Positions 15,856 through 47,087 of a stretch of DNA of 64,000 nucleotides are shown in pieces. Source of the stretch: an uncultured Phycisphaerales bacterium. GTDB taxonomy: Bacteria > Planctomycetota > Phycisphaerae > UBA1845. Within the stretch, counting starts at the first letter, position 1, and the number at the start of each line of letters is the position of its first letter. The translations under genes and the position numbers were made by a program. Location of the stretch: the NCBI GenBank assembly GCA_965371725.1, contig CBDUZO010000008.1:3636-67635 (forward strand). The letters run 5' to 3'. The notes under the pieces were generated by a model. It was not told the origin of the DNA and searched no databases. It saw only the letters and a program-made list of their open reading frames with translations.

Positions 15856-16730
15856 CACACAGTTCCTCTCTAGCTGACTGTTGAGAAGTTCCGAACGAAC
15901 CTCCAGATCCACGCTATTCGCCGCGCAACGTCCGCCACGGGGGGCGGCCGCTACCTTTTTCAACACGCTGCTAGCCGAGCGTGTTTGAGGCGTCCCTGCC
16001 GAGTCTGCCGCCCGGTGCACAGCTTACCCCAGTATTCATCTACACGCACGAACTGTCTATCCCTTAGTACATGAGACGCACCACGCAAGGTTGCAGTTCC
16101 CTGAAAACGTCACCACCGGGCAGATCGGTTCGCGGACGTGAATGATCTCTTACTGCTATCCGATTACTACGTCCAGGGGCATCAACTGGTTGTAAGAAAG
16201 ATGTAACGACCGAATCAAGGCGAAAGGATCGGCGAGAGGATCGAAATAGCGTTCCCATGCGACATCGCCCTTCGGGTTTGTCGTCCCGTATTCGGCAGAA
16301 TCCCTGGGCCAGGCGTTTTCGCCTGCGGAAGCGACCGATGGCCAGTTCGTCGGGGACACGCCAAGCTGGCATCAGACGCAAAAAGTCGCCCGGCGAGCAA
16401 ACGATGGCCACATTGGCGACATGTCACGCGATCTCCGAGTTGTGTCTCCCGAATGTTCCTTGCCTGAGCCTCCTGCCAAATCATCCAGAATCCAGCTGTC
16501 GGCGACCGTGTCGGGCGATCGCCACCTGCTGAGTCCACCGACGATGCTAAACTGAATCGCATCTTCGGTGCCAGAATTGTGGCAGTCTCGTGGAGGCGTG
16601 GTGCGCGAGCCGCTTGATGATATTCGTGAGCTTCTCCTGGCGGAGTTTGCCTAAACAGATGTGCGTCGCAACATGCGGCAGTCACCACTACGTGGTGCGG
16701 GAGTTTGCAGCGCCCTACACAGACTGCTTA

Positions 16731-24271: not shown

Positions 24272-25476
24272 GGATCCTTCGACCTGCGCAGGAGGGCATG
24301 ACCGCTCTTGCGGCCAACAAACTACGGTCGTTCTTCATGATGGCCGGGACCATCGTCGGCATCGCCGCCCTTACGGTTATCATGGCCATCGGCAAGGGGA
24401 CGGAGAAGAAGATCATGAAGCGAGTGGAGAACTTCGGCCCGCGCGCCATGATGCTGATCGCCGGCGGCGGGAAGGACCTCCCCCCGCCCGACATGACGGT
24501 CACGACCCTGACCCTGGATGACGCACAAGCTGTCCGAGAGCACATCGAAGACATCGACATTGTCTCCCCGATGGCCTGGAGCTTCCGAATGAACGTGAAG
24601 CGAGACGCCAATCAGTACCAGGCCGTGCTCTGGGGCGTGGAACCGAGTTGGCACGAGGCTTGGAACTGGTACGCGGTCGAGGGTGAGGGGATCGCACATC
24701 AGGACGTGGCCACCATGGCGAGAGTCTGCGTGATCGGACAGACCATCCAGCGCGAGCTTTTCGCAGACGCCGATCCCGTCGATGAGACTATCTACGTCAA
24801 CAAAGTGCGCCTCACCGTCAAGGGTGTTCTGGAAAGACGCGGGGCAAGTCCGATGGGAACCGATTTTGACAATCGTGTCATTGTTCCGATCACGACGGCC
24901 ATGCGACGTATCATGAACATCGATCATGTCGGAGCGATACGTGTAATCACGAGAAACGCCTCCTTGATGCCCACACAGGCAGAAGGCATCCGCGCCTTAA
25001 TCCATGAGCGTCATCACATCACGGCGCCGGAAGAGGACGACTTCCGTATCGTCTCTCCGATGGTCATTGCGGAGCTGGCGCGTGGAACATCAAGAACGCT
25101 GTCCATCCTACTTATCGCCCTGGCGGGTCTCAGTCTGCTCGTCGGTGGAATTGTCTTGATGAACATCCTGCTGATCTCAGTGAGCGAGCGGGTGAAGGAA
25201 ATCGGTCTGCGCCGCGCCGTGGGGGCCACGCGCCGGGACATCTTCGTCCAGTTTCTCACGGAATCCCTCTCGGTCACACTGCTGGGCATGTTTCTGGGAA
25301 GCGGCCTTGGCTGGGCGATCAGCCTGCTATTGATCAAGATTGCCCGGTTCCCGGCCGTGATCTCATGGGAGCCGTTCGCTCTTGCTGTCGCATTTGCGCT
25401 TTTGGTCGGCACTCTCTTTGGCGTGCAGCCGGCCCGGCGCGCAGCGACGCTGCACCCGGTCGAGGCGTTGCGGTGA
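24268..25476 (+). CDS. ABC transporter permease (MacB/FtsX-like), copy 1
   Basis: ATGA overlap with the ATPase stop. N-terminal MacB_PCD region and C-terminal FtsX TM bundle (LLISVSERVKEIGLRRAVGATRRDIFVQFLTES...). Confidence 0.9.
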   Translation: MRILRPAQEGMTALAANKLRSFFMMAGTIVGIAALTVIMAIGKGTEKKIMKRVENFGPRAMMLIAGGGKDLPPPDMTVTTLTLDDAQAVREHIEDIDIVSPMAWSFRMNVKRDANQYQAVLWGVEPSWHEAWNWYAVEGEGIAHQDVATMARVCVIGQTIQRELFADADPVDETIYVNKVRLTVKGVLERRGASPMGTDFDNRVIVPITTAMRRIMNIDHVGAIRVITRNASLMPTQAEGIRALIHERHHITAPEEDDFRIVSPMVIAELARGTSRTLSILLIALAGLSLLVGGIVLMNILLISVSERVKEIGLRRAVGATRRDIFVQFLTESLSVTLLGMFLGSGLGWAISLLLIKIARFPAVISWEPFALAVAFALLVGTLFGVQPARRAATLHPVEALR

Positions 25477-25566
25477 AAGCCTCACGCAACATCATTCTCT
25501 CCCTGGAGATCCTCGCCGCACACAAGACCCGCACAGTACTCAGTGTGGTCGGGATCGTCATCGGCG
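25422..25566. repeat. 145-bp direct repeat, copy 1 (3' end of permease 1 plus the first 31 codons of permease 2)
   Basis: Identical to 26662-26806 except at two positions (25443 a/c and 25446 g/a). Both differences are synonymous third-codon positions in the permease-1 frame. The offset is exactly 1240 bp. Confidence 0.9.
25473..25566 (+). pseudogene. Orphaned 5' fragment of the permease-2 gene
   Basis: GTG 25473 (GTGA overlap) followed by VKASRNIILSLEILAAHKTRTVLSVVGIVIG. This is identical to the start of the intact gene at 26713. After 25566 the frame runs into unrelated sequence. Confidence 0.8.
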
Positions 25567-25820
25567 GGCCGCGCCTCGAACGCCGTGCGGCGTCTCCGCA
25601 CGCGACCGCCGGTCGCCGAGAATGGCGGGTTCATTACGATGGCGTCGTAGAGCTTGTCCGCCGGAAGAAGATTGTCGAGACGTTCGGCGTCAAACGCCGT
25701 CGGCGTGCTGAATTGCTGGAACTCAACCCGAAAACCGTTGGTCTTCAACGTCCGACACGGGGGTCGGACGCTACGTTCTCCCTGAACTTGAACCTCATCG
25801 CGACGCGTTTGCCGCGGCAA
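25567..25820 (-). pseudogene. Internal fragment of an N6-adenine DNA methyltransferase (conjugative-element type)
   Basis: The reverse frame reads ...EFQQFSTPTAFDAERLDNLLPADKLYDAIVMNPPFSATGGRV... with the NPPF catalytic motif. It is cut off abruptly at the 25566/25567 junction. Confidence 0.55.
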
Positions 25821-25939
25821 TCGCGCCTGCTCGGCGACGAGCTACTCAATTGCGGCGTGCTCCCTACTCGGTCGCTCTCCGCTTCCCGGGTCGGTCTCAC
25901 CTCCGTCGCGTTCCCCCGCCAAACGCGACGGAGGCCACG

Positions 25940-26518
25940 CTATTTGCGCGTGGCGGTGATCTCGAGGATCACCCACTCCTTCCCATCGGAACCCTTGGCG
26001 AACCCCCGCGCAATGTTCTTGTCGTTGCTGACGATCTCAAGGGTTGACTTGGCCTCCCCGGTGAACGTGAACACCTTGCGGGAGGCATCACAGGTCCCCA
26101 GCGAGGTTTCGAATCCAGTACCCAGGGTATCCATATGAATGTTAAAGTACTTCTTCTGCGTCTTGTCATACCCCATGATGCTGAAGACCGCGTAGGGCAT
26201 GTTATTGAAGACGGTGCCCTTGTATTCCTCTGTGAGGAAGCGTCCGTTGAGGATCCACTTTTTCTCGATCGTTCCGGTCGACTCGTGTGGCGCGGTACCC
26301 GGGGCGGTCCAGTACTTGACCGAGCAGTTCCAACTCCCGGCCAAGGGCTTCAAGTAACCATGAAACTTGCCGGGCGCGGCCACCTCCATCATCGCCTTGA
26401 TCTGGGCCTCCTGGTCCTGCCCTCCTCTGGTGCCCTTGTCCTGCGAGAGGACGTGGGTGCTCACAAGTGTTATGACGGCGAGGAACACCGCCCCACCAAA
26501 CCATGCACGCAACTTCAT
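25940..26518 (-). CDS. DUF1579-like secreted protein
   Basis: 192 aa with a signal peptide (MKLRAWFGGAVFLAVITLVSTHVLS). The body (...LAGSWNCSVKYWTAPG...KKWILNGRFLTEEYKG...YAVFSIMGYDKTQKKYF...) fits the lipocalin-like DUF1579 pattern. Confidence 0.6.
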   Translation of the reverse strand: MKLRAWFGGAVFLAVITLVSTHVLSQDKGTRGGQDQEAQIKAMMEVAAPGKFHGYLKPLAGSWNCSVKYWTAPGTAPHESTGTIEKKWILNGRFLTEEYKGTVFNNMPYAVFSIMGYDKTQKKYFNIHMDTLGTGFETSLGTCDASRKVFTFTGEAKSTLEIVSNDKNIARGFAKGSDGKEWVILEITATRK

Positions 26519-26661
26519 GTTTCGATTCCTTACGGGTTAAAGACAAAGCTCGATGTCCCGGACGTCCGCCGACATTATACCGCCCCGAGAGCCCGTCCGG
26601 AAGCCCCGCCCATGTCTCACCCTATCGCCCGTCGCCCCGCGTTTCTGGCGGGCAAGCGGAT

Positions 26662-26806
26662 CGTGCAGCCGGCCCGGCGCGCCGCAACGCTGCACCCGGT
26701 CGAGGCGTTGCGGTGAAAGCCTCACGCAACATCATTCTCTCCCTGGAGATCCTCGCCGCACACAAGACCCGCACAGTACTCAGTGTGGTCGGGATCGTCA
26801 TCGGCG
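26662..26806. repeat. 145-bp direct repeat, copy 2
   Basis: See copy 1. It is preceded by unrelated sequence and followed by the rest of the intact permease-2 gene. Confidence 0.9.
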
Positions 26807-27930
26807 TGGCGTCGGTCGGGCTGGTGGTTTCCGCCGGCAAGGGAGCGGAGAAGAGCATCCTGGATCGCATCCGCGACATGGGCACGAATCTTATCGTCGT
26901 AAACGCAGGGCAGACACGGATCATTGCCGGCCGGCAGCGTCAGATGGCTAGCGTAACAACGCTGGTTCCCGAGGATGCCGAGGCAATCGCGGACCGGTGC
27001 CCATCGGTGGCACTGGCCGCACCAGCGGTCTTGAAGAAGATGTCGGCCCGATGGGAATCAGAAAACACCAACACGAACGTAGTTGGGATGACCGCGGATG
27101 GGATTCACATACGCAACATCGTGATCGCGCAGGGGGATCTCTTCTCCCCGGAAGAGAACCGGGCGAGAAGGCGGATTGCGGTCCTCGGCACGACCGTGGC
27201 TACGAACCTCTTTGGCAACACAGATCCAATCGGGCTGAATTTCCGGATTGGTCGCGTGCCTTTCGAGGTGATCGGTGTAGCCGCGCCCAAGGGTGTGGAT
27301 GCCAACGGCGCGGACCAGGACGACTTGATCATCGTCCCGCTTGAGACTGCGATGCGGCGTCTCATCAACGTCACACACATTCACACGGTCTACGTTCAGG
27401 CGCGGGAAACGACAGTTCTCGAACGTGCCGAAGAGGAGATCCGCGAACTCTTGCGCCAGCGGCATCGACTGCGAGACAAACCCGATGATTTCACGATACA
27501 GAATCAGGCCACGCTACTGGAAACCGAACGCGATACGGCTCGCTCCATCACGCTTCTCGTAGGCAGTGTGGCCGGCATTTCGCTACTTGTCGGCGGGGTC
27601 GGGATCCTGGCGGTGATGTTGATCTCTGTCCGGGAGCGCACTGGGGAGATCGGGCTCCGAAGGGCCGTCGGGGCGCGTCGTCGTGACATCAGGAACCAGT
27701 TCCTGGTCGAATCGGGCATGCTTGCCGGTTCCGGTGGCTTCGTGGGGGTCATCGGGGGACTTGCCGCTGCTCTTACCGTCTCTGGATTGGGCTACTGGCA
27801 CATGGTGATCTCGTGGCCGGCGTGGGCAGTTGGCTTCATCTTCTCCGTAGCGGCGGGCGTTGCCTTCGGCATCTACCCCGCAGTTCGCGCCGCCCGGCTC
27901 GTGCCGATCCAGGCACTCAGAGCTGAATGA
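26713..27930 (+). CDS. ABC transporter permease (MacB/FtsX-like), copy 2
   Basis: GTG 26713. VKASRNIILSLEILAAHKTRTVLSVVGIVIGVASVGLVVSAGKG..., with a C-terminal FtsX bundle (MLISVRERTGEIGLRRAVGARRRDIRNQFLVES...). The upstream part of track ORF 26503 is non-coding. Confidence 0.88.
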   Translation: MKASRNIILSLEILAAHKTRTVLSVVGIVIGVASVGLVVSAGKGAEKSILDRIRDMGTNLIVVNAGQTRIIAGRQRQMASVTTLVPEDAEAIADRCPSVALAAPAVLKKMSARWESENTNTNVVGMTADGIHIRNIVIAQGDLFSPEENRARRRIAVLGTTVATNLFGNTDPIGLNFRIGRVPFEVIGVAAPKGVDANGADQDDLIIVPLETAMRRLINVTHIHTVYVQARETTVLERAEEEIRELLRQRHRLRDKPDDFTIQNQATLLETERDTARSITLLVGSVAGISLLVGGVGILAVMLISVRERTGEIGLRRAVGARRRDIRNQFLVESGMLAGSGGFVGVIGGLAAALTVSGLGYWHMVISWPAWAVGFIFSVAAGVAFGIYPAVRAARLVPIQALRAE

Positions 27931-29116: not shown

Positions 29117-29949
29117 TTCCGCAAGCACACATTACCGCATGGCGCGCGACCGCACCCTGGGCCGATGACGCTCAGGTTGAACAGGATCTGGTGCTCTCGC
29201 GTGCGACCGTTGAGATATTCACCGACCCCGAATTGAGCGGTTCACTCGCCCTTCGGGGCGGCACGGCTCTGAACAAACTGTTCATCTATCCGCCCAGTCG
29301 ATACTCGGAGGATATCGACCTAGTTCAAGCAGAGCCTGGCGCCATAGGCGACGTGTTGAACGCTCTACGCCATCGACTGGATCCCTGGCTCGGGCGGCCC
29401 AAGCGGTCGAGCAGCGAAGCCAGTGTGACGCTGGTCTATCGTTTCGAATCGGAGGTGCCGCCGATCCGGCCGCTGCGCCTCAAGATCGAGATCAACACGC
29501 GCGAGCATTTCACGGTTCTGGACTACAAACATCCGCTGCTTGCGGTGGCCAACCCTTGGTTCACCGCCGAGACCAACGTCACGACGTATCAACTGGGCGA
29601 ACTGATGGGCACGAAACTGCGAGCCCTCTACCAGCGTCGCAAAGGGCGCGACCTCTTCGATCTGTGGCTGTGCCTGAGCCGTGGCTTGCTGGACCCCGAC
29701 CAGGTGGTGGCGTGCTTTTCCGCATACATGAAGCACGAGAAACGGACTATCTCGCGCGCCGAGTTTGAGCGTAACTTGTTCGAGAAGGAGACTGCGTCGG
29801 TATTCCTGGACGACATCAGACCGCTTCTGGCAACGGGAATCAGCTATGACGTCAAGGTGGCCGCGACGCTCGTGCGCGAGAGCCTCGTCAGTCGGTTGGC
29901 TGGAGAACCCTGGCGGGGAACGCCGTCTGCCGGTGACGCGGACATCTGA
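29113..29949 (+). CDS. abiEii: AbiEii/AbiGii-family nucleotidyltransferase toxin (DUF1814)
   Basis: TTG start. (M)IPQAHITAWRATAPWADDAQVEQDLVLSRATVEIF...LALRGGTALNKLF...RYSEDIDLV gives the GG.AL...S.DiDl NTase motif. Confidence 0.85.
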   Translation: MIPQAHITAWRATAPWADDAQVEQDLVLSRATVEIFTDPELSGSLALRGGTALNKLFIYPPSRYSEDIDLVQAEPGAIGDVLNALRHRLDPWLGRPKRSSSEASVTLVYRFESEVPPIRPLRLKIEINTREHFTVLDYKHPLLAVANPWFTAETNVTTYQLGELMGTKLRALYQRRKGRDLFDLWLCLSRGLLDPDQVVACFSAYMKHEKRTISRAEFERNLFEKETASVFLDDIRPLLATGISYDVKVAATLVRESLVSRLAGEPWRGTPSAGDADI

Positions 29950-30514
29950 TCATCCACCTGCCCATCACACACACGCCCAGCCAAGACCTCCGACCCAACG
30001 TTGAAGGGCTGTCTGCCACCGGGTGCCCCACTCCAACGATCCTGTGGCCCTTTGCTTGGAGGCCCAACGAAGTAGACCCCCGCACAACGTCACGCACCTG
30101 AACCCACCGGGCCAGTTCAGGCATGGTGGTCCCGCCATCTGCGGCCGACAGATGGAGACCATCCGCAAAGCGGCCCTGCCGTCATGATTCAGGAGGAGAC
30201 CCAACGAGTCGCGGATCTCGCAGAACAACTCTCCGAAACCCTCATGACCGCCGCGATCTGCGCCGATGAAATCCGTGCCGTTCTCCGGGCGGAACTCGAC
30301 GGCCGCGCTCCCGCCCATTGGGGGCAATCGCAGGATACGGAGCCTCGAAATCCTCCGCGCCAGCGCCTGCCTGTTTCTCGATATACGATATACGGCCAAC
30401 GCGGGTGCGGGATGGACGGGTTGTGAACACCGTGGTACGATCAGACAGTCTCTCGCGCGGTCAGGTTGACGCACCGTGACCGAGACACGCAGTCGTCGAT
30501 CTGGAGTACATACC

Positions 30515-31639
30515 ATGGCCAAGAAGGTACAGAAGAAGAGAGTCAAGAACCGGGCGGCGAAAGCCAAGAGTAAGCGCAAGGCGCGCGTTCGCTGGCCGTT
30601 TCCACGAGTCGCATTGGAGGAGGCGGTCAGAATTCCCGTGATCCTCAAGGAGAAGAACGGGGGAAACCCGTGGACTCCCGACGAAATCGCGTCGGCTTTG
30701 GGCGTGTCCAAAGCAACCAACAACTTCTTTTACATGGCTGCCGCGTCGCGGGACTTCGGCTTTACGGAAGGTGGTCGCGATAGCGACAAGATCAAGCTCT
30801 CGGAGTTCGGCCGTAATGTTGTCTATGCTCCGAGCCCAGATGACGAACGCAAGTTGAAGCAGAAGGCATTTCAGAGCATCGAGCTCTTCAGCAATGTTCT
30901 CGAATACTACAGTGGCAGCAGGTTGCCGGAGATGAAGTACCTGAGCAATACGCTCACTCGCGAATTCGATCTCGCGCCCGAAACTCATGAGGAGTTCTCA
31001 CGGCTATTCAAGCAGAACTGCGAGTACCTCGAGATTGGAGAGGGCATCAAGCGAGCAGCCGATGAGTCGGAATCGGGCACTCGCAGTGAAGGTAGCGCTC
31101 CGAGCGAACGTCGGGAAGTTGTCACCCTGGCTGAGCCGGAGAGCGAGACAGGGCTGAAGTGCTTTGTAATCATGCCATTTCGCGAGCGGGATCCTGAGAG
31201 GTCACCTGGCTTCTTCGATGAAGTGCTGCGAAACCTGATCGCCCCGGCCGGTCGGCAAGCCGGATTCACGGTCAGTACCGCCAATCGGCAAGGTAGTGAT
31301 GTCATCCAGTCGACCATCATCAACGACCTGTTAGATGCCGATTTGGTGGTCGCGGATCTAACGGAGCACAACCCCAATGTGCTCTTCGAGCTCGGCGTCC
31401 GAATGGCCCACGACAAGCCCGTAGCGCTGATTCGTGCGAAGGGTACCGGGCCAGTTTTCGACGTTGACAATATGCTTCGAGTCGTCGACTACGACGGGAA
31501 TCTCTGGCAGTCGACCGTCGAACGCGATGTTCCACGCCTTAAGGCCCACATTGAGGCCACATGGACGAATCGCCAAAGCGACAAGAGCTACATGAAGCTT
31601 CTACGACGGACTCCAGCGCGAAACGGTGAGCCCGACTGA
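30515..31639 (+). CDS. Uncharacterised protein A: basic tail, putative winged-helix-like domain, and a C-terminal nucleoside-2-deoxyribosyltransferase/TIR-like Rossmann domain
   Basis: ATG 30515 with a GGAG RBS 9 nt upstream. The N-terminus is MAKKVQKKRVKNRAAKAKSKRKAR. A mid region (EIASALGVSKATNNFFYMAAASRDFGFTEG...IKLSEFGRNVV) suggests wHTH. The C-terminal pattern KCFVIMPF...(about 55 aa)...LLDADLVVADLTEHNPNVLFELGVRMAHDKPVALI matches the NDT-like layout, including the conserved Glu. Confidence 0.7.
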   Translation: MAKKVQKKRVKNRAAKAKSKRKARVRWPFPRVALEEAVRIPVILKEKNGGNPWTPDEIASALGVSKATNNFFYMAAASRDFGFTEGGRDSDKIKLSEFGRNVVYAPSPDDERKLKQKAFQSIELFSNVLEYYSGSRLPEMKYLSNTLTREFDLAPETHEEFSRLFKQNCEYLEIGEGIKRAADESESGTRSEGSAPSERREVVTLAEPESETGLKCFVIMPFRERDPERSPGFFDEVLRNLIAPAGRQAGFTVSTANRQGSDVIQSTIINDLLDADLVVADLTEHNPNVLFELGVRMAHDKPVALIRAKGTGPVFDVDNMLRVVDYDGNLWQSTVERDVPRLKAHIEATWTNRQSDKSYMKLLRRTPARNGEPD

Positions 31640-32098
31640 ACCTGCGGCGGCGACCGAACTCAACGGATCGGAGGACGCCGCTCTGTACTCAGCGCTGGAA
31701 GCACTAGCCTCACGGTTTTCGGTCTGCCCTGCGCGGAACGTTCGCTGCCGGGACCCGGTGCTCCGGTGCCCTCCGCGCTATCGGCTCCTGGAGATTCGGC
31801 ATGTGGTTAGTCGCGGACGCCGGTCGCCTTGTCCGAGCCCCGGGCCCGCTGGCGTTGACACCGCTGTCCCGTCGCCGACAATTGACGCCGGTCGACCCGA
31901 GCGAGCTGAGCTTCCGTCAGTCGACACGCGTACGCCGTACGTAGCCGACTCCCCGGCGAAGACGGCGGCAAGACTGCCCAATACATGCTCCGCTGGGTGG
32001 CCAGAGCCGGTGGGACGCCGAGTGGCGGCAAGCGACCGTTCGCCTCTGCACTGGCACCACTAGTCGCGTCATCGGCGCAGCGCAACGAGGGCACAAGT

Positions 32099-33922
32099 AT
32101 GGCTGGTCGTAGGATCCTCCTCACCGGTACGTCTGGCTTGGGCATGACGCATGTTCTCAAGCAGCTCAAGCAGCACTCTGCGGAGCCTGTGCGTTGTTGT
32201 AAGGCCGAGAAGCACTTTCTGGAACATGTGCAGAAGACCGACCTCGTCGAGCTATGGGAGAAGCTCCCCGAAACAGAGAGGATGATCAGTGCGCTCGAAT
32301 TGCCCCAGCAGGTTCTGCTGAAGTGCTGGCGCGAGGCCTTCCTGGAGCTTGCCAAGGCGAACTATCCCGACCTGGACAACACCCAGAACACGGATACCGA
32401 AGGCGGTGACGCACATATCGCTCTTGCAGCACACATGTGTTTCTATCACCAGCAGTCTCGTGAGTTCGTGCCGCTAGTTGACGCCGACCTGCTCGCGAGG
32501 GAATTCAAACCGGACGTGATTGTCACGCTGATTGACGACGTCGAGCACATGTTCAAGCGTTTGCGCGAACCCGGCCAAATGTATGCGAATCACCATTACG
32601 AAGGGTTCGGGGGCGTTGTGCAGGCGTGCCGAGATCTTTCGCAGCTTGTCCACTGGCGTGCCTCGGAAACCGCGTTCGCCAAGAGCTTCGCCAGGCCCAT
32701 CGAAGAATGCGACCACTTTCTGCTCGCCGTGAAGCACCCTGTCAGCACTCTTGAAGCCCTACTCTTTGAGCCCGACCGGCCGCGAGCCTATCTGTCGCAT
32801 GCGATCAGCGAACCACGCCGCAAGCTCGGTGAAGGTGATTCTGCGTTATTCGATGCGTTCTGCGAGGAGCTTGAACAGGCCTCGGCGATTCTGCGGACGC
32901 GCGGAGTCCTTTTTGAACCAACTGCGATCGACGAGTTTCGATTCCGAAGTTTCACTTGTAAGGACTCACAAGGAGAGCCAGGCCCACGGATTTCGCTCCC
33001 AACTATGACCGATCGCTGGCCGCTACTTGCCAGAGGAGACGATCTTCTTTGGTCTCATGTCGCGGACGACAACCCGGTCGATCCAGAGGGACACTTCAAG
33101 GCCAAACAACTGGACGACTTCGAGGCGAGGAAGAGGACAATGGACAAGGCGGATTCTCGGCCCTTGCAGGGTTGGTGGAGTAGGAAGAAAGCCCGGGCGG
33201 AAATGGCCAAATTGGTCGAGGTCGAAAACGCGACACAGCTAGTGAGGTCCCTGGTTGGTGAAATAGGACGCTCCGTAACGAGTCGTGACCTGAAGCTGGT
33301 TGAGCAGGCGGACCACCTGATCGTTGTGCGTCCGCTCTTCAACGGCAATTCCTCCGGCGGGGTGGGTAAAGAAATCCGACAACACTGCCGGTTGCATGCC
33401 CGGGGGGACCGTGCCCGGAAAGGCATCTGGGTCTTCACGGCAAAGGACGACGAGAATAAGTGGCGATTAAACCAGGTGGCCAGCTGGCTGCACCGATTTC
33501 ACTTGCAGGACCCCGGCGTCTCAGTGGAGGATGTCCGTGAGGCGATCAGGCCGCTCGCTCAGATGGCCGTTATCGAGGCGAATGCCCCCGACGAGCTGAA
33601 GGCCAACCTTGACAAGCAGGTTGTCGATATGTTTGGGGAGCTGACCCGTCTGGTCTCTGATGAATGGAGCGTACAGCTCGTGCCGACGCCCAGAGGATCT
33701 GGCGACGATCCGTTGAAGGAGTCGATGGCTGTCGCAGCCACGGGCGCCCGCGCAGAGTTGACGGACAAGCTTCTGGAGACCATAACGCCGTCGTACCTCG
33801 CCCAATGGGAGTATTTTAAGAATAACCTTGACCACACGGTGCCCCTTACGATATATTGGGGGTTGCCCTGGCCCCGCCCACAAGACCTTGAGAGTTGCTT
33901 GGACGGCCTTGCAGTGAATTAA
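32099..33922 (+). CDS. Uncharacterised protein B: P-loop kinase-like domain with a substituted Walker A lysine, plus an NDT-like domain carrying a large insert
   Basis: ATG 32099 with a GAGGG RBS. RRILLTGTSGLGMTHVLKQL (GxxGxGMT instead of GKT/S); a Walker-B-like PDVIVTLIDDVEHMF. Then RAYLSHAISEPRR... and ...RDLKLVEQADHLIVVRPLFNGNSSGGVGKEIRQH, which resemble the two halves of an NDT-type fold with the Glu retained. Confidence 0.7.
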   Translation: MAGRRILLTGTSGLGMTHVLKQLKQHSAEPVRCCKAEKHFLEHVQKTDLVELWEKLPETERMISALELPQQVLLKCWREAFLELAKANYPDLDNTQNTDTEGGDAHIALAAHMCFYHQQSREFVPLVDADLLAREFKPDVIVTLIDDVEHMFKRLREPGQMYANHHYEGFGGVVQACRDLSQLVHWRASETAFAKSFARPIEECDHFLLAVKHPVSTLEALLFEPDRPRAYLSHAISEPRRKLGEGDSALFDAFCEELEQASAILRTRGVLFEPTAIDEFRFRSFTCKDSQGEPGPRISLPTMTDRWPLLARGDDLLWSHVADDNPVDPEGHFKAKQLDDFEARKRTMDKADSRPLQGWWSRKKARAEMAKLVEVENATQLVRSLVGEIGRSVTSRDLKLVEQADHLIVVRPLFNGNSSGGVGKEIRQHCRLHARGDRARKGIWVFTAKDDENKWRLNQVASWLHRFHLQDPGVSVEDVREAIRPLAQMAVIEANAPDELKANLDKQVVDMFGELTRLVSDEWSVQLVPTPRGSGDDPLKESMAVAATGARAELTDKLLETITPSYLAQWEYFKNNLDHTVPLTIYWGLPWPRPQDLESCLDGLAVN

Positions 33923-33939
33923 ACGCGTCGGAGAAGACG

Positions 33940-34167
33940 ATGAAAACGGTTCTGACCATTTACGGAGATTCGGGCAGACGGACGACCGAAGCGGCGAAGG
34001 CCCTGGCGGCAACCAGCATCCGGTTTCGAGTCTGCCTGACACATGACCACCCTGGAACGCCTGTTCTCAGCCTACCGTTTGGAGAGATCTGCGGCTTGGA
34101 CCGCATCCGCGCCTTCGCCGAACGGGCGGCGGCGCAGGGCGACGCGCCAACGCAGGTGCCTCGCTAG
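33940..34167 (+). CDS. Small (75 aa) protein C, possibly a glutaredoxin/thioredoxin-like fold lacking CxxC
   Basis: ATG 33940 lies 18 nt after the gene B stop and is preceded by GGAGAA. MKTVLTIYGDSGRRTTEAAKALAATSIRFRVCLTHDHPGTPVLSLPFGEICGLDRIRAFAE follows the beta-alpha-beta spacing of small glutaredoxins, but Ser-Gly-Arg-Arg replaces the CxxC. Confidence 0.4.
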   Translation: MKTVLTIYGDSGRRTTEAAKALAATSIRFRVCLTHDHPGTPVLSLPFGEICGLDRIRAFAERAAAQGDAPTQVPR

Positions 34168-34274
34168 CCGCTCGCCGAATCTGATGCTCTCCTAGCTTCA
34201 TAGACGCGTCCCGGACGCACCCTCTCCTACTGACGCATGTCAAGCCGGATCGGCAGAGCGAGATCCTTACGGCG

Positions 34275-34604
34275 ATGAAGAGCTACAAGGACTATAGCGT
34301 GGCCTTTGCCCGGAGTTTGATCCTCAAGACGCTGCCCGCGCAACGCGAAGTCCGGCGACGAAAACGCAATCCGTGGAACAAATCCGCCCAGCGCAAGAGC
34401 GATCTTCTCAAGAAGTTGGCGGAGGCCGAACAGAAGCACGATTTCTATTCCCGATTGTACAAGCAGTACACGATTGACTTGCTCCGCCTCGCCATCTACG
34501 CGCGTGCCCTGCTGACCAACCGGCAAGTCCGTGGATGCCTAGACCAGCGTCATCCGGAAATCGTGGCACGTTTCGAAGCGATCATCGCGGAAGCGAAGGG
34601 ATAG
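34275..34604 (+). CDS. Hypothetical basic helical protein (109 aa)
   Basis: ATG start and Lys/Arg-rich helical sequence. It ends 4 nt before the next gene. No motif recognised. Confidence 0.35.
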   Translation: MKSYKDYSVAFARSLILKTLPAQREVRRRKRNPWNKSAQRKSDLLKKLAEAEQKHDFYSRLYKQYTIDLLRLAIYARALLTNRQVRGCLDQRHPEIVARFEAIIAEAKG

Positions 34605-34608
34605 TGTC

Positions 34609-35217
34609 ATGGCCAAGTGGTCGCGCGAGCGGATCATCCGTGAAATCCTGCGTCGCGAGAACTCTGGTCGACCGCTCGATCTCGGCGGTGCCGACCGCGT
34701 CCCATCGTCACTCTATCAGGCCGCATCGCGCGTGTTTGGTTCATGGCGAAATGCAATAGTGGCCGCAGGCATCTCGCCGGAGAAAGCGAGGGTGCATGAC
34801 CCTTGGTCGCCCTCCAGAGTCTTGGCGGGCATCAAGTCTCTGGCTCGAAGAAAGCGACCTTTGCGGCCGACCGAGTTGAAACGCCGCTACCATCTGCTCC
34901 TTGCGGCGGCTCGGAGGCATTTCGGTTCGTGGCCAAAGGCGGTGGTTGCTGCCGGTGTTGATCCGGAAAGGCTGAAACGAGTAGCGCCTTGGACGAAGGA
35001 ACGGATCATCGAGGCCATTCTGACGCGTGCGCTGCATGGGAAACCGCTGAACAGTCACGCCGTGCGACCGAAATCCCTTGTGGAATCCGGTGCGAGAGTA
35101 TTCGGCTCATGGGCCTCGGCACTGGCAGCGGCAGGGATCGATCCGAAACAGCACGTGCGCCGGCTGCTTGGTGATCCTCTCTGCACAGCGGACGGCATGG
35201 CGGCGCGAGACGATTAG
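34609..35217 (+). CDS. Protein made of three homing-endonuclease-associated (HNH-repeat-like) repeats
   Basis: Three units of about 62 aa: W[ST]xERII..IL...G.PL...(x)...R.FGSW..A..AAGI[DS]P, beginning at WSRERIIREIL, WSPSRVLAGIK and WTKERIIEAIL. Confidence 0.6.
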   Translation: MAKWSRERIIREILRRENSGRPLDLGGADRVPSSLYQAASRVFGSWRNAIVAAGISPEKARVHDPWSPSRVLAGIKSLARRKRPLRPTELKRRYHLLLAAARRHFGSWPKAVVAAGVDPERLKRVAPWTKERIIEAILTRALHGKPLNSHAVRPKSLVESGARVFGSWASALAAAGIDPKQHVRRLLGDPLCTADGMAARDD

Positions 35218-35381
35218 CAGAATGCCCTTTGCCGCACAGGCGGTGTTTTTTTGTCGCGGAAGTATCAACGAATGGAGGCCTTGAGACCAAGAGGAGGGCA
35301 GTAAACGCAGCAGTAGCAAGCACTTACGCACGGCGGTCTCAAAGTCTCACCTTCTGTGGTCTGCCACCCACGAGCCAGAGC

Positions 35382-36299
35382 ATGCCCAAGAGACAAAGAG
35401 CAGCGGAGCTGCCCCGAGAAGTCATCCCAATCACGAAGTACTCGCAACTTGACCTGTACCTAGGCAAGTTCGCAGCGGGTGAGCTGGGGCTGGTGCTATT
35501 GCTTGGACGCCACGGAACTGGAAAGAGCGAGGGCGTCAGACGCGCGCTGAACATCTCGTCATCGGACGGATACACACCGACCGAAGGTGGACTGCAAGTA
35601 CTTTATGTCGAGGGGCACATGAGACCCTACGGCTTGTATTGTTCTCTTTGGGAGTACCGCGACCGCGTGGTCGTCCTGGACGACTTGGACAAGCTGTACG
35701 CTGATGCCGAATGTGTCCGGCTTCTGAAGCCGCTATGCAACACTGAGCGGTCTAAGCGAGTCACGTGGCTCAGCAACATGACGCTGCGTGGTAGCGACAT
35801 TCCTGCTTCCTTTGGGACGACCGGCCGCGTGATTCTCATTGCCAACGAGTGGCGCACGTTGAACCCGAACGTGCGCGCCTTAGAGGACCGGGCGATCATT
35901 CTGCATTTTGATCCACCGAATTCCGAAGTGCATCGGAGGGTGGGCGAGTGGTTCCAGGACCACGAGGTTTACCGGTTCATCGCCCGGATCTTGCCCTCCA
36001 TCAAGGTGCTCTCCATGCGGCACTACTGTAGTCGTCCTTCCGGCAGAATGTTCCCCTCCTTGATCTCACGCAAACCCACAAGAATCGCGCGCCGCGAAAT
36101 CCCTGTAGCGCGTGCCACCAAGGAAATGCCACCGTATCCAATCGAGTTGGCTTCCGTAGCGGCCCAGACACGGCGCGTATGTTCGTCCAGGCGAGAGGCA
36201 AGCACGCGGAACTTCACACGAATCGCAGCTTCTGTCGTCATGCCGAAAGAATCGGACTTCCGGCCTAAGTTGCATCACTTATTTGGTCGCGGGTCCTAA
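35382..36299 (+). CDS. AAA-type ATPase, with its 3' end apparently replaced by read-through into IS debris
   Basis: ATG 35382. Walker A LLLGRHGTGKSE, Walker B RVVVLDDLDKLY, then ...GRVILIANEW. From about 36020 the frame is antisense to the ISAzo13 fragment and becomes Arg/Ser-rich with no motifs. Confidence 0.55.
   Translation: MPKRQRAAELPREVIPITKYSQLDLYLGKFAAGELGLVLLLGRHGTGKSEGVRRALNISSSDGYTPTEGGLQVLYVEGHMRPYGLYCSLWEYRDRVVVLDDLDKLYADAECVRLLKPLCNTERSKRVTWLSNMTLRGSDIPASFGTTGRVILIANEWRTLNPNVRALEDRAIILHFDPPNSEVHRRVGEWFQDHEVYRFIARILPSIKVLSMRHYCSRPSGRMFPSLISRKPTRIARREIPVARATKEMPPYPIELASVAAQTRRVCSSRREASTRNFTRIAASVVMPKESDFRPKLHHLFGRGS
36023..36241 (-). mobile_element. N-terminal fragment (72 codons) of an ISAzo13-family transposase
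   Basis: MTTEAAIRVKFRVLASRLDEHTRRVWAATEANSIGYGGISLVARATGISRRAILVGLREIKEG closely follows the conserved ISAzo13 N-terminus (...AIR.KF..L...lDEr.rRlWAa.EA..iGyGGi..VArATGiSR.tI..G..El..g). There is no DDE domain downstream. Confidence 0.65.
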
Positions 36300-37521
36300 C
36301 GCTGGGCCGGGCGTCCTGGAGGTGGTTCTTGATAGCGAACAGAATCTGTGTTATGGCCCACTCTGGTGGCACCAGGTATCGGTGGGTCCGGTGTTCGATG
36401 TGTTGCTTGTGTGCCACGGTATTCACTGGGATTGCCTGCATCCATTCGGCCCGCTGGCTGAAATCTATAGTCGGTTCGAGCTTGACCGGGATGGTTTCTG
36501 GGATCCGAGTTGCGTCACGTCTCCGATAGACATTTGGTTGAGGCGATGTGGTGACGGGCAATGCGATGCAGAATGTGGTGAGAACCCGTGTACATGCCCG
36601 CAAGACTGTCCTGGATGCTGCAATGATGGCAACTGCCCTGACGATGCCAATCCGTGTACGGATGCTCACTGTGTTGACTTCTCTTGCATCCAATCGAACG
36701 TACCAGACGGGACTGTATGCGCGCACCCGAGTTCCCCCCCATGCGAGAGCTACGGGGCGGGGTGTTACGACGGCCACTGTGAGGGGGCCTGTCTAGAACC
36801 GTGTCCTGCGGAGGGCAGTTGTTACGGGGATTTCGAGTGCTGGCCCTGGCAGGTGTGTGATTTGTCTGCATGTATTCCCAGTTACTGTGAGTGCATCGGC
36901 GGGGGATGGGCCTGCACGTTAGATTGTGTGGGGCAATGCGTTGCTGGCTGCTCAGATGGCACTGTCGTGTTTGTGGAGCCTACGGACGGGTTTTACGACG
37001 CGCGACAACCCCATCCCGTAGACGACGCCTCCACGCTTCAGGGCGTTGCCAGTTTTGCCGTGCAGGCCCCCGCGAACGCCGACTTCGGCGACGGCGCCTG
37101 CTGGTCGCTCTGCGAAACCAACCATAACCCGACTGTACATCCCGGACTCGGACCGAATGCAATCGCTTCGGTTCTTGACAACGGTGGCGGAATGTACACG
37201 GTTACGCTGAGTCGCCCGATCACGCACGGCGAGGTAACGACGCTCACGTACACCAGCAAGAGTGGCTTGACGGTCGTGACGGGGACGTTCTATTTCCTGC
37301 CGGGTGATGCCGGCGCCGACGGCACAAGCGCTCCGGCGGACGTGCTGGCCGTGATCGACTCGCTCAACGGCGTGACGCTGCTTCCAGTTTCGCAAGTGGA
37401 TATGGACCGCGACGGAACGCCCGCTCAAGCGGACATCCTGCGTGTGATCGACCTGCTGAACGGCGCGGATGTGTTCGAGCCGTTTGTCAACGTGACGATC
37501 GACGGTACGGGTTGCCCATAG
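36283..37521 (+). pseudogene. 5'-truncated Cys-rich protein with two dockerin-type repeats
   Basis: The only start available is a TTG, there is no signal peptide, and there is no internal Met for more than 300 codons. Dense Cys repeats (CGDGQCDAECGENPCTCPQDCPGCCNDGNCPDD...). The C-terminus has GDAGADGTSAPADVLAVIDSLNG and VDMDRDGTPAQADILRVIDLLNG. It begins right at the IS fragment. Confidence 0.55.
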
Positions 37522-38127: not shown

Positions 38128-38370
38128 GTGGCGAAAATCAGTGACTATCTGACGATCGGCGAGGCGGCGGCATACCTGGGAGTTCACCCGGATAGTCTGC
38201 GCCGCTGGGACAGAGCCGGAAAGCTGGAGCCGCGTCGGCATCCGATCAACAACTTTCGACTCTATCTGAACCGCGACCTGGACCGGCTCCTCCCCCAGAT
38301 CGGCGCAGTCGGGTCTGCCGACGACGACTCCAAGAGCGCCAAGCGGAAGCGGCCCCGGCGGAAGCGATAG
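38128..38370 (+). CDS. MerR-family/excisionase-like HTH DNA-binding protein
   Basis: GTG start. (M)AKISDYLTIGEAAAYLGVHPDSLRRWDRAGKLEPRRHPINNFRLY is a classic MerR-type HTH. Basic tail KSAKRKRPRRKR. Confidence 0.8.
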   Translation: MAKISDYLTIGEAAAYLGVHPDSLRRWDRAGKLEPRRHPINNFRLYLNRDLDRLLPQIGAVGSADDDSKSAKRKRPRRKR

Positions 38371-38399
38371 ATGTTGCTGTACGACGGAGCGAACGGACT

Positions 38400-41300
38400 A
38401 TGGATGTATTCGATCTTCGGGAACGGCTCGTCAACGACTACGCCTCGTACGTTCGGAGCTTCATCAACATCCGCGACGAGCGGATCGGCGAGACGGTGGA
38501 GCGTAAGCTCCGGGAAGGCGCTCTTTGGCCGGACCCGCTCATTCAGTTAAATCCAGCCTTTGAGCCGGGGGCATCCATCCCAGAGGTCGTATCGCGCAAA
38601 CTGCTTCATGAGGAATGCAACAAGATCTTTGCGATCAAGGGCGACACCGCAGATAAGCCAGCCCAGCCGCTCCAACTGTACCGACATCAATTGGATGCCA
38701 TCGAGGCGGCCCACACACAGGACAGCTACGTTCTGACCACCGGAACCGGATCGGGCAAGAGCCTCGCGTACATCATCCCCATCGTCGACTTCGTCCTTCG
38801 GCACGGGTCAGGGAAAGGGATCAAGGCCATCGTCGTCTACCCGATGAACGCCTTGGCCAACAGCCAGCACCAGGAGTTGCACAAGTTCATCAACCTCGGA
38901 TATCCCGACCTCAAGGGGCCGGTGCGATTCGCCCGGTTTACGGGGCAGGAGTCGGAGGACGAACGCCACGAGATCAGGGGCAATCCCCCCGACATCTTGC
39001 TGACCAACTATGTCATGCTGGAGCTGCTGCTCACCCGTCCGTACGACCGCAGACTGATCGAAATGGCCAGGGGACTCAAGTTCCTGGTCTTTGACGAACT
39101 TCACACCTATCGCGGTCGTCAAGGCGCTGATGTGGCCATGCTCATTCGGCGCGTTCGGGAGGCTTGCCATGCTACGGACCTCCAGTGCATCGGAACCAGC
39201 GCCACTCTGTCCAGCAAGGGATCGAAGGCCGACCAGCGGCGGATCATCGCGGAGATGGCCACCCGGCTGTTCGGGGCGACGGTGAAGCCGGAGCGAATCA
39301 TTGGAGAAACTCTCCGCCGCGCAACGGACGAGATCGACACGGGTGACGCCGCAGAGATCGCCGCACTCAAGTCGAACGTGGACAACGGCGCGGAGGATGT
39401 GCCGAGGGCATTCGATCAGTTCATCAAGTACCCGCTCGCCCGCTGGATCGAGACGACCCTTGGCTTGACCCGCGACGATGAAGGAAATCTGGCCAGGGCC
39501 ACGCCTCGCCGGATAAGGGGAAAGGGCAGCGCCTCCGAGGAGCTGGCAAGACTGCTCGGCACCGATGACGCAGACGCCTGCGCAGGTGCGATCCAGAAGT
39601 GCCTGTTGGCCGGATACGACTGTGAACGGCCGGACAATCGAATGCCGACATTCGCCTTCCGTGTCCACCAGTTCATCTCTCGTGGAGACAGTGCCTACGC
39701 CTCCATCGAGGAGACCCAGGATCGCCATATCACGATTCGAGGGCAGCAGTTTGTGCCGGGCGACCGGAGCAGGATTCTTGTGCCGCTAGGTTTCTGCCGG
39801 GAATGTGGCCAGGAATACTACCTCGTTGATCGTTACCGAGAATCGGACGACGGACCACTCCGGTATCGTGGTCGGGAATTGTCGGATAGGGGCGATGATG
39901 ACAACAGCACGGCAGGATTCCTGTATGTGAACGACGACAACCCGTGGCCGGACGAACAGGACGACAAGTTTTTCGAGAGCATCCCGGAAGATTGGATCGA
40001 GCCAGGCCGCGACGGCAAGCCGAGAGTGAAGCGGGATCGCCGCAAGATGCTCCCGAAAGCCGTAAGCGCGAACAAGCTGGGCGTCGAGACGCCGGATGGA
40101 AAGCGGATGCACTTCGTTGTTGCTCCCTTTCGCTTCTGCCTCAACTGCGGCGTTGCCTATGCCGGTCGGCAATCCGACTACGGGAAGCTGGCCACGCTGG
40201 CTAGCGGTGGAAGAAGCACCGCGACCACGACGCTCTGCCTCTCCACGATACGTTGGCTGCGGGAGGACGGCACGCTCCCAGCTCATGCAAGGAAGGTGTT
40301 GAGCTTCACGGACAATCGCCAGGACGCCTCGCTGCAAGCGGGACACTTCAACGACTTCATCGAGATGGGGTTGCTGAGATCGGGCCTTTACAGCGCCGCC
40401 CTCGCCGCCGGCTCCGACGGCCTCGAACACAGTGAGTTGGCGCAGCGCGTGTTTGACATCTTGAAGCTCGATCCTGAGCAGTATTCATCGAACCCGGAGG
40501 CGAAGTTCGCGGCCAGAAATCGAACAGACTCGGCCCTCAAGAAAGTCCTCGGCTATCGTCTCTACCGCGACCTTCAACGCGGCTGGCGCATCACATCGCC
40601 GAACCTTGAGCAATGTGGGCTTCTGGAGATTCGATATGAGGCGATGGACGACATCGCCAAGGCGGACGGACTTTGGCAAGGGCGTCATCAGGCTCTCGCC
40701 ACGGCCAGCCCCGAAGAACGTCGCGTCGTCTGCAAGACCCTGTTGGACTACATGCGCCGCGAGCTGGCCATCAAGGTCGATTACCTCAACTACGAGTATC
40801 AGGAACGGCTCAAGCTGGAGAGCAGCCAGCAGTTGATCTCGCCGTGGTGCATCGACGAAAACGAACGGCCCTTTAGCGCACGAACGATGCGCATCGGCTC
40901 TCGTCAGCCGGGCGACTCCGAAAACGACCGGTATCTATCGCCGCGCGGCGGGTTCGGCCAATTCCTTCGTCGCGGAAGCACGTTCTCCGATTACACCCAG
41001 CCAGCCAAACAGAAGCTGGACAATTCGCTGGCAATTCTCAACGACCTGGTGGCGGCGCTGACAGAGGCGGGCCTGATCGAGCAGACAGCGCATGGCGAGA
41101 GACCGGGATTCCAACTCCAGGCATCGAGCATGAGATGGGTCGCCGGTGATGGCACTCGGCCGTCCCACGATCTGATCCGCGTTCCTCGGCTATCGCAAGA
41201 GGGTGGCCAGACCAATCAGTTCTTCATCAATTACTACAAGACGATGGGGCTGAACAACAGCGACCTCTGCGCCCGTGAACACACCGCAGCAGTGAGACAT

Positions 41301-46408: not shown

Positions 46409-46497
46409 CAGGAGTCAGAGAGGCGAGGACCAGAGTGTAGGAAGGACATGAGCGTCAGGGTTGTCAACAACGGGATCGAATCTGGAGGGTAGGCAAG

Positions 46498-47073
46498 ATG
46501 CCACCGAAAAAACCCACAAGCGCGTCTGCTGAGATTGCCGAGCTGGAGATCACTCTACTCGAAAGCGATCCTCCGATTTGGCGGAGGTTTGGCGTCAGGT
46601 CTGACATCAGCCTTGCCAGACTCCACGATGTGATCCAGATCGTCATGGGCTGGACGGATTCCCATATGCATCAGTTCACCGATGCAGCCCGGAACCGATA
46701 CGGTACGCCCGTTCCCGACTTTGATGGGGAGGTTCGCGACGAGAGCCGAGTCAAGCTCCGTGACGTGGCAAAGAGGAAGGGTAGCCGTTTCGGGTACGAG
46801 TACGATTTTGGCGACGGCTGGATGCACGGCCTCAAACTCGTGAAAACAGGCCCACCGGAGCCCCGTAAGCGGTATCCGGTCTGCCTGGACGGGGCCATGG
46901 CCTGTCCCCCGGACGACTGCGGTGGTATCCCCGGCTATTACAATCTTCTCGAAGCGATGGATGATACGGAACACGAGGCGCATGAGGAGATGGTGGAATG
47001 GCTTGGACGTGACTTCAAACCGGAGAGATTCGACGTCAAGAAAGTCAACCGAGATCTGAAAGCACTGCGGTAA
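46498..47073 (+). CDS. Plasmid pRiA4b ORF-3-like (MM3350-like, PF07929) domain protein
   Basis: GGAGGG RBS. ...LEITLLESDPPIWRRFGVRSDISLARLHDVIQIVMGWTDSHMHQF...YEYDFGDGWMHGLKL...CLDGAMACPPDDCGGIPGY is the canonical PRiA4_ORF3 pattern. Confidence 0.8.
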   Translation: MPPKKPTSASAEIAELEITLLESDPPIWRRFGVRSDISLARLHDVIQIVMGWTDSHMHQFTDAARNRYGTPVPDFDGEVRDESRVKLRDVAKRKGSRFGYEYDFGDGWMHGLKLVKTGPPEPRKRYPVCLDGAMACPPDDCGGIPGYYNLLEAMDDTEHEAHEEMVEWLGRDFKPERFDVKKVNRDLKALR

Positions 47074-47087
47074 TCGTGCGGCGTTGA

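Follow-up and report, generated by a model that had tools for sequence, protein, structure and literature searches.

Three adjacent genes, here called A, B and C, lie at positions 30,515 to 34,167 of a 64,000-nucleotide (nt) stretch of DNA from an uncultured Phycisphaerales bacterium (GenBank assembly GCA_965371725.1, contig CBDUZO010000008.1, positions 3,636 to 67,635 of the forward strand); this whole stretch is referred to as the window, and its numbering is used throughout. A preliminary description had proposed that the three genes form one nucleotide-centred defence system. Our analysis indicates instead that the region is probably made up of two independent accessory modules, gene A and the pair B-C, which were joined in a defence island. 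Gene A most likely represents a new type of a known kind of effector, a single-gene candidate in which a helix-turn-helix (HTH) domain is combined with a DNPH1/MilB-like N-glycosidase domain, and B-C is most likely an unannotated pair, consisting of a protein that unites a lysine-less kinase with a Rossmann-like domain and of a small partner protein.

Separate occurrence of gene A and the B-C pair

If A, B and C made up a single system, A and B would be expected to travel together. In none of the 83 loci that carry a homologue of A was a homologue of B detected (hmmsearch, E≤1e-3), and among about 37 loci with a B homologue there was no case in which A adjoined B. The contexts of B that we read, at 68%, 45%, 31%, 30% and 24% identity (loci L001-L005, L012 and L013), likewise have no adjacent A, and in 29 species genomes recovered by a B-domain pattern search C was the only recurrent neighbour of B. 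A relative of A with 84% identity (L006) has neighbours wholly different from those in the window; a 454-residue gene downstream of it was considered as a truncated B and was rejected because BLASTP gave no match. The features of the region are as follows.

30515..31639, + strand: gene A, open reading frame (ORF) of 374 amino acids
30515..30589, + strand: N-terminal tail of A, residues 1-25, Lys/Arg-rich and disordered (AlphaFold2 model, AF2; homologue alignment)
30596..31039, + strand: residues ~28-175 of A, probable HTH followed by a four-helix region (AF2, profile)
31130..31570, + strand: residues ~206-352 of A, predicted DNPH1/MilB-like domain of the nucleoside 2-deoxyribosyltransferase (NDT) superfamily (Foldseek, Pfam, PDB sequences, PHROG)
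31388-31390, + strand: codon of E292, the candidate catalytic Glu of A (alignment with Rcl/DNPH1)
31640..32098, no strand: non-coding A-B spacer of 459 nt (ORF list)
31855-31882, inside the A-B spacer: sigma-70-like promoter match TTGACA-16-GACAAT, 10 of 12 positions
32099..33922, + strand: gene B, ORF of 607 amino acids
32099..32773, + strand: residues 1-225 of B, archaeal-adenylate-kinase-like fold (Foldseek)
32126-32149, + strand: Walker A motif of B, G10-T17, GTSGLGMT, with Met16 in the place of Lys (sequence)
32774..33508, + strand: residues 226-470 of B, Rossmann-like, candidate member of the TIR-DrHyd-SLOG class (AF2, conservation)
33353-33373, + strand: B motif S419-G-G-V-G-K-E425 (family conservation)
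33940..34167, + strand: gene C, ORF of 75 amino acids, starting 18 nt past B

The DNA upstream of B points in the same direction as the distribution of the genes. The closest relatives of B (L131-L133, with 83%, 76% and 67% identity), all on short contigs, are followed after 17-19 nt by a 75-residue C. In L133, the gene upstream of B encodes a divergent, unrelated protein of 478 residues, and in L131 and L132 the upstream DNA, too short for a gene to be visible in it, is not homologous to the A-B spacer of the window. Compared with the relatives of B, the shared DNA upstream of the gene covers only the last 50-90 nt before the ATG. Because A and B do not co-occur, the spacer contains a promoter match and the upstream homology is short, we conclude that A is a stand-alone gene and that B-C, about 2.2 kb long, forms an autonomous cassette. 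The logic that had been suggested for the three genes together, in which a sensor or DNA-binding module serves two NDT-type, nucleotide-processing folds, does not apply, since A and B-C are independent units and not one system.

The hypothesis of one three-gene defence system, in which two enzymes of the NDT/TIR-like kind and a small accessory protein would act together with a DNA-binding sensor, draws on the arrangement in the window. The genes are indeed adjacent and co-directional within a defence island, each has its own ribosome-binding site as had been described (a Shine-Dalgarno-like GGAG/GAGGG 7-12 nt before each start codon), and nucleotide handling is plausible for all three proteins. 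However, the complete absence of A-B co-occurrence elsewhere largely refutes the hypothesis, and both the 459-nt spacer with its promoter-like site and the fact that homology of the B cassette opens only shortly upstream of B speak against it; we consider it extremely improbable. With regard to the start of B, a longer ORF opens at 31985, and the start of every homologue falls at MAGRR or the corresponding position. No direct or inverted repeats that might mark an insertion were found flanking A or B-C, and an Rfam scan of 29900-34700 gave nothing significant, its single match (E=0.78) lying far under the gathering score.

Architecture, neighbours and possible role of gene A

Gene A belongs to an abundant and well-conserved family. 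A word-indexed search returned at least 2605 homologues, of which the best 120 are 57-92% identical to A over nearly the full length, and the family comprises thousands of sequence clusters with about 60% identity across phyla. In an alignment of 33 homologues, the mean column identity is 56%, and conservation extends over both halves of the protein. The AF2 model (predicted local distance difference test score, pLDDT, 78) orders the protein into a basic tail, an HTH-like domain, a helical domain, a linker (residues 180-201, low confidence) and the DNPH1/MilB-like domain. Residues 1-20 have a pLDDT below 50, and among homologues the tail varies in length and is always basic. The segment of residues 28-175 is modelled at a pLDDT above 90 and opens with three helices (39-48, 55-62 and 69-80) and a short strand. 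A profile of the N-terminal region gave a weak match to the TetR HTH domain of 3on4 (E=0.012), and a Pfam scan of this region matched no family. As judged from the model and the profile, the N-terminal half of A probably contains an HTH DNA-binding domain.

The C-terminal domain was modelled mostly at a pLDDT of 80-93, with a dip around residues 250-270. When it was compared with the PDB by Foldseek, the top match was MilB (4jem, E=9e-5), and the other 49 of the 50 best matches were DNPH1/Rcl; the matches ranged from E 9e-5 to 4e-3, with a template-modelling (TM) score normalized to the target of about 0.6-0.73. Sequence comparisons agree with this result, though weakly: a search of PDB sequences with A found Rcl at E=0.011-0.05, and many homologues of A carry a precomputed PF05014 tag. 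In addition, phrog_3634 matched at E=8.6e-24. Residue E292 is invariant in the 33 homologues, as is the motif E-x-N-P-N-V-x-x-E-L-G, and because the FELG of A aligns with the YELG of Rcl/DNPH1, E292 is assigned to the position of the catalytic Glu. The model, the structural matches and the alignments thus bear out the basic tail, the NDT/dNMP-N-glycosidase-like C-terminus (dNMP, deoxynucleoside monophosphate) and the retained Glu that had been noticed from the sequence, and A is predicted to carry a nucleotide N-glycosidase-type domain of the NDT superfamily. A shares the fold and the x-E-L-G Glu with DNPH1 (Rcl) and MilB, which lack the N-terminal basic tail and HTH domain of A.

MilB is an N-glycosidase of CMP and hydroxymethyl-CMP, and DNPH1/Rcl is an N-hydrolase of 5-hydroxymethyl-dUMP; hydroxymethylated pyrimidine nucleotides are substrates of both. 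Two further observations set A apart from these enzymes. The match of PF05014 to A itself (E=1.5e-4, 22.3 bits) falls under the gathering cut-off of 28.8, and two other residues that are invariant in the A family differ from their counterparts in DNPH1, Ile268 standing opposite Asp and Asn286 opposite Ser. We take the Asp of DNPH1 to be catalytic and the Ser to bind phosphate. With Ile and Asn at these positions, the substrate or chemistry of A may differ from that of DNPH1.

The preliminary description had also offered a TIR-like fold for A, and this option was not borne out. A TIR effector model of PADLOC (PDLC00733) matched A weakly (E=7.7e-6, 23 bits), no TIR protein was among the 50 best Foldseek matches, and no Pfam TIR family matched. 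A TIR effector of CBASS was accordingly rejected as the identity of A, the weak PADLOC match being unsupported by structure. Apart from this match, PADLOC-DB v2.0.0, against which the comparison with named systems was made, contained nothing for A, B or C, so that the statement that no named defence system matches the region held.

Known defence systems do contain related domains. The NDT-like effector of retron Ec86 (Retron-Eco1) depletes adenine derivatives and requires its catalytic Glu (bioRxiv 10.1101/2023.08.16.553469). This effector resembles A in combining an NDT-like domain with a part that binds nucleic acid, which is putative in A. However, the retron effector needs a reverse transcriptase and multicopy single-stranded DNA, and its domain order and sequence family differ from those of A. 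We rejected a retron effector as the identity of A, given that between AbiEii and the HNH-repeat gene there are no ORFs other than A, B and C, that Rfam found no relevant RNA and that no reverse transcriptase recurs near A. Another comparison is with ThsI of type VIII Thoeris, in which a CMP-hydrolase domain of the MilB/DNPH1 type is combined with tetratricopeptide (TPR) repeats and for which manipulation of the nucleotide pool has been proposed (bioRxiv 10.64898/2025.12.03.692087). ThsI contains a TPR sensor, and its partner is a TIR protein producing cyclic ADP-ribose, whereas A lacks both TPR repeats and a TIR neighbour. Thoeris was rejected because no TIR partner is found beside A in the window or among the recurrent neighbours of A. 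An NDT-like N-glycosidase of dAMP is also known from a phage, the enzyme DmtZ.

The catalytic domain of A also occurs in phages, as shown by the match to phrog_3634 and by 24 phage records. In Streptococcus phage SM1 (L130), gp11 has an A-type catalytic domain, and its gene lies among repressor and integrase genes. In Escherichia phage vB_EcoM-689R2 (L129), the gene for such a domain sits between helicase and polymerase genes, two genes from one annotated as a 'TIR-like domain-containing protein'. A viral or proviral contig of IMG/VR (L123 or L128) encodes a full-length relative of A with 43% identity.

To describe the surroundings of A more generally, we scanned 145 ORFs, from about 47 metagenome loci, that lie at most two genes away from A. 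The largest numbers of neighbours matched type I methyltransferase and specificity subunits, ResIII, AAA_21/AAA_15, SWI2/SNF2 and Eco57I, with single matches to Abi_2, SIR2, GmrSD, RhuM and resolvase. One A locus adjoins a type I restriction-modification (RM) system and an integrase, and another lies near an N6/N4 methyltransferase and a ResIII helicase. Qualitatively, on crude ORF calls from short metagenome contigs with no per-locus score, these surroundings are what one would expect for an accessory gene of defence or of mobile elements. A separate arrangement was seen in L009-L011, where a homologue of A (P0133) is followed after 23 nt by a gene for a 472-residue protein with the C-terminal domain of the NmeDI restriction endonuclease (PF27126). 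The combination of A with NmeDI_C, present on 25 contigs, may be an arrangement of two genes that is peculiar to this lineage.

One plausible interpretation is that A is a stand-alone anti-phage effector that attacks nucleotides. The N-terminal half would bind nucleic acid, or repress the gene's own expression, and would sense infection; the C-terminal domain would then cleave the N-glycosidic bond of a dNMP or NMP, of a modified phage nucleotide or of NAD+, and the loss of nucleotides would starve phage replication. In this mode of action A would be similar to the effectors of retron Ec86 and of type VIII Thoeris. Alternatively, A might be a transcription factor or nucleoid-associated protein whose NDT-like domain is a ligand sensor, or serves a DNPH1-like clean-up of the nucleotide pool, and not an anti-phage effector. 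The HTH-like domain and basic tail would fit such a protein, as would the Ile opposite the DNPH1 Asp, and sensor versions of the fold class without catalytic activity are on record. We nevertheless think that this is unlikely, given that neither the Glu nor the E-x-N-P-N-V-x-x-E-L-G motif around it varies, that the neighbours are variable and rich in mobile elements and RM genes, that contexts differ even at 84% identity, and that the catalytic domain is found in temperate phages at positions typical of accessory genes.

Composition, distribution and possible role of the B-C pair

The size of the B family depended strongly on the search method. A full HMMER profile scan recovered 1511 clusters (50% identity) at E≤1e-3, of which 746 are at E≤1e-30; the word-indexed search, with a single sequence or a profile, found only 16 relatives and greatly understated how common B is. 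The family is distributed patchily over Acidobacteriota, Chloroflexota, Gemmatimonadota, Armatimonadota, Planctomycetota, Gammaproteobacteria and Actinomycetota, and over Halobacteria and Methanophagales among the archaea. No family of Pfam, NCBIfam, PHROG or PADLOC matched B above threshold. The AF2 model of B (pLDDT 82.6, predicted TM score 0.83) consists of an adenylate-kinase-like domain, a Rossmann-like domain with a large insert, and a C-terminal helical region.

The first of these domains could be assigned with Foldseek. Residues 1-225 matched the archaeal adenylate kinase OdinAK (7owe) at E=2.7e-7 and that of A. pernix (6ln3) at a target TM score of 0.74, and the matching archaeal adenylate kinases (OdinAK, A. 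pernix and Methanococcus) had target TM scores of 0.70-0.76. All but one of the 33 PDB chains that match B at E≤1e-3 are archaeal adenylate kinases, the remaining one being a designed protein. The fold is the same at about 16% sequence identity; B differs from these enzymes in having a hydrophobic residue for the Walker A lysine and in the fusion of the kinase-like domain to two further domains. In an alignment of 161 family members, the position of the Walker A Lys is always V, I, L or M, with Met in the GTSGLGMT of the window, and hence the loss of the lysine is a family trait rather than a local mutation. The kinase-like P-loop with Met for Lys, which had been read from the sequence, was thereby corroborated. 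An Arg or Lys often occupies the next position in the B family, which is not so in the subfamily of the window. Other strongly conserved residues of the domain are W77, H112, D146, D147, R154, W186, R187, E190, K212 and H213. One possibility is that nucleotide binding by the kinase-like domain serves for regulation or as a substrate clamp, without phosphate transfer.

Several members of the B family carry additional N-terminal sequence. P0200 (928 residues) is fused to a Ser/Thr protein kinase (Pkinase, 1e-39; PADLOC PD-T4-6, 2e-73), P0245 to TPR-like repeats, and P0168 has a 150-residue extension without annotation. When 84 members were compared with the PADLOC models, only one matched any of them, through its fused kinase domain.

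Residues 226-470 form a second domain of alternating strands and helices in the AF2 model, with an insert at about 282-358. The residues that are best conserved across the family lie in this segment: Y231, S233, H234, R240, P274, T275, D278, E279, R306, W307, R396, D397, R411, P412, G421, V422, E425 and D451. The conserved residues S233, H234 and R240 come after the strand at 229-234, whereas R411, P412, S419, G421, V422 and E425 come after the strand at 406-410 and extend into the helix at 420-435. The segment D397-x7-D405 ... S419-G-G-V-G-K-E425 mirrors a segment of DNPH1/Rcl in its D-x7-D spacing and its S-x-G-V-x-x-E, a likeness at the level of motifs only. In a planned test, the comparison of the hidden Markov model (HMM) of the B core with the Rcl fragment gave a shuffle p of about 0.025, and PF05014 matched three of 30 core segments, at E≥0.043.

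Other comparisons gave no support to an NDT-like identity for this domain. PDB profile searches with residues 224-470 and with a 92-residue core gave no match to NDT, LOG or TIR proteins, and hhalign comparisons between B and A, made on the whole alignments first and afterwards on deep alignments restricted to the domains, gave a probability below 1%. Foldseek searches of PDB and BFVD with the full-length model returned matches to the kinase domain alone, so that the structural comparison covered that domain only. By predicted secondary structure and motifs only, the segment fits the published definition of the TIR-DrHyd-SLOG class (Burroughs/Aravind), a fold class that includes non-catalytic sensor versions. 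Because the motifs are present and their statistical support is weak, we grade the assignment of residues 226-470 as NDT/SLOG-like, and as a candidate for the TIR-DrHyd-SLOG class, as likely but unproven. The second NDT-like unit that the preliminary description had placed in B is thus tentative: the likeness is marginal and at the level of motifs, and no significant profile match accompanies it. The domain might act as a DNPH1/LOG-like N-glycosidase or as a nucleotide sensor. A viral or proviral IMG/VR contig (L123 or L128) encodes a relative of B with 29% identity over this domain.

In nearly every locus with enough flanking DNA, B is adjoined on the same strand by a C homologue of 65-95 residues. 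C lies beside B in L002-L005, in L012 and L013 (upstream) and in L131-L133, and an iterated HMM finds it in at least 18 of the 29 genome loci. It is located downstream of B in the relatives of the window and upstream in many others, including archaeal loci, with gaps between the two genes of -3 to about 30 nt. B-C is therefore a conserved, tightly coupled two-gene cassette in bacteria and archaea. C had been described as a protein of 75 residues that starts 18 nt after B and resembles a glutaredoxin fold without CxxC. The length, the position and the absence of CxxC, which holds for C and its 20 aligned homologues, were confirmed; no family of Pfam, NCBIfam, PHROG or PADLOC matched C, and the glutaredoxin fold found no support when the C profile was compared with PDB sequences, which gave spurious matches to pentatricopeptide repeats and no glutaredoxin. 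In the alignment, a hydrophobic strand is followed by a helix and another strand, and then by a mostly conserved Pro and G-x-x-x-I, a pattern that, as far as sequence can suggest, fits a thioredoxin-like fold. C may be a binding partner of B that serves as an inhibitor or regulator.

We then considered what the pair might do. In one possible scheme, B-C is a conflict module in which the pseudokinase domain of B, derived from archaeal adenylate kinases, would sense a nucleotide that is possibly made or modified by a phage; sensing would free the fused DNPH1/LOG-like N-glycosidase domain, which would normally be restrained by the cysteine-free C. The neighbours of B-C, however, weigh against such a role: they are mostly housekeeping genes (ribosomal proteins and MoeA, rhamnose genes, SecY/adk/cmk, PGK, TIM, DNA polymerase III and ABC transporters), and defence genes are few, with LmuA, HerA, SIR2, a restriction enzyme and mad genes as occasional neighbours. 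A frameshift after about 27 residues in the C homologue of L001 (9838-10047), beside an intact B, is a further difficulty for the scheme. Because the neighbourhoods are mostly housekeeping, the defence role of B-C is uncertain, and we regard a role in conflict as possible, somewhat short of an even prospect. The more specific combination, in which B-C is the conflict module just described and A is a new, abundant single-gene anti-phage effector, has a low probability as a whole.

A HicB/HicA pair lies directly beside B-C in two related contigs (L001 7136-7580 and L132 2728-3173), upstream of B-C in one and downstream in the other. In L019 (5369-6954), B is split into three ORFs and the C-like ORF is intact. 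Errors of metagenome assembly could account for the apparent decay of one partner in L001 and L019.

Two alternatives to the conflict module could be envisioned. The first is that B-C is not immune at all and is a sporadic pair of nucleotide metabolism or regulation, for example an NMP nucleosidase regulated by ATP or NMP together with its small regulatory subunit, in which case its position in the island would be coincidental. The predominance of housekeeping neighbours in 28 genomes and several metagenome loci agrees with this idea, as do the absence of any recurrent neighbour of the pair, defence-related or other, and the likeness of the kinase fold and motifs to enzymes of the nucleotide pool. 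It also agrees with the outcome of tblastn of B against plasmid and phage collections, which gave no match. Against it stand the patchy spread over very distant phyla and archaea, which is typical of transferred accessory genes, the defence and toxin-antitoxin genes (LmuA and the others listed above, and HicAB) among some neighbours, the family members with a PD-T4-6-like Ser/Thr kinase fusion or TPR repeats, and the location of the pair inside a defence island in the window. We hold this alternative to be tentative, although it carries appreciable weight.

The second alternative is a toxin-antitoxin-like pair, in which B would be a nucleotide-degrading toxin and C its small protein antitoxin. 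A tight two-gene unit with the small partner on either side of B, inserted into unrelated contexts and adjoined by HicAB in two loci, would be compatible with this arrangement. The frameshifted C beside an intact B in L001 counts against a classical toxin-antitoxin relation, the fragmented B with intact C in L019 also speaks against the idea, and no known toxin or antitoxin family was matched. We consider such a relation improbable.

Surroundings in the window and significance of the two modules

The genes around A-B-C are largely those of a defence island. An AbiEi/AbiEii pair lies upstream of A (Pfam E ~1e-33; PADLOC 4e-88 and 3e-105), and downstream of C there are a few small genes and a MerR-type regulator, followed by three defence-type genes. 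These Pfam and PADLOC matches support the flanks named in the preliminary description, an AbiE pair and a DISARM-like operon, and since such genes are present on both sides, the placement of A-B-C in a defence island is real.

The MerR/HTH_17 regulator (38128-38370) fronts the DISARM-like operon, which occupies 38128-53005. The operon encodes a 1723-residue helicase whose best PADLOC match is DruE (5e-105) and which also matched DrmA, a DpdE/DrmD-like SNF2 helicase (43520-46408; 3e-253 and 1e-84), a DrmMI-like methyltransferase (47088-51362; 3e-77) and a 590-residue ORF without a PADLOC match (51233-53005). It may be a DISARM, a Druantia-like or a Dpd-like system. Four more genes are located between C and the MerR gene (34275-37521). 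The first is a 109-residue ORF without annotation; the others are a 202-residue protein in which an HNH-associated repeat (PF18780, 2.6e-14) occurs three times, a protein at 35379-36299 with a weak AAA_16 match under the family threshold, and a Cys-rich protein of 412 residues whose C-terminus resembles dockerin-type repeats by eye.

Farther upstream, a 150-nt direct repeat is present at 25422-25571 and 26662-26811, the two copies being 97% identical and 1240 nt apart. The repeat duplicates the 5' part of a putative MacB/FtsX-type permease gene, ORFs 25365-26138 and 26503-27930 have the same N-terminal peptide, and a minus-strand ORF of 192 residues (25940-26518) is bracketed by the repeat. 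The region has the appearance of an insertion or of a partly duplicated gene. At 4632-16020, the minus strand contains two very large ORFs, of 2686 and 1246 residues, for which PADLOC gave no match.

The separation of A from B-C carries a methodological lesson, namely that adjacency within a defence island is not evidence for a single system. To our knowledge, N-glycosidase chemistry of the DNPH1/MilB type has been found in defence so far only within multi-gene systems, retron Ec86 and type VIII Thoeris; if A protects against phages, it would be an abundant single-gene addition to the defences that deplete nucleotides. B-C represents an unannotated family of at least 1500 clusters for which there is no Pfam, NCBIfam or PADLOC model, and its combination of a lysine-less kinase fold, a second nucleotide-type domain and a small partner offers a clear object for structural biology and biochemistry, regardless of what the pair does in the cell.

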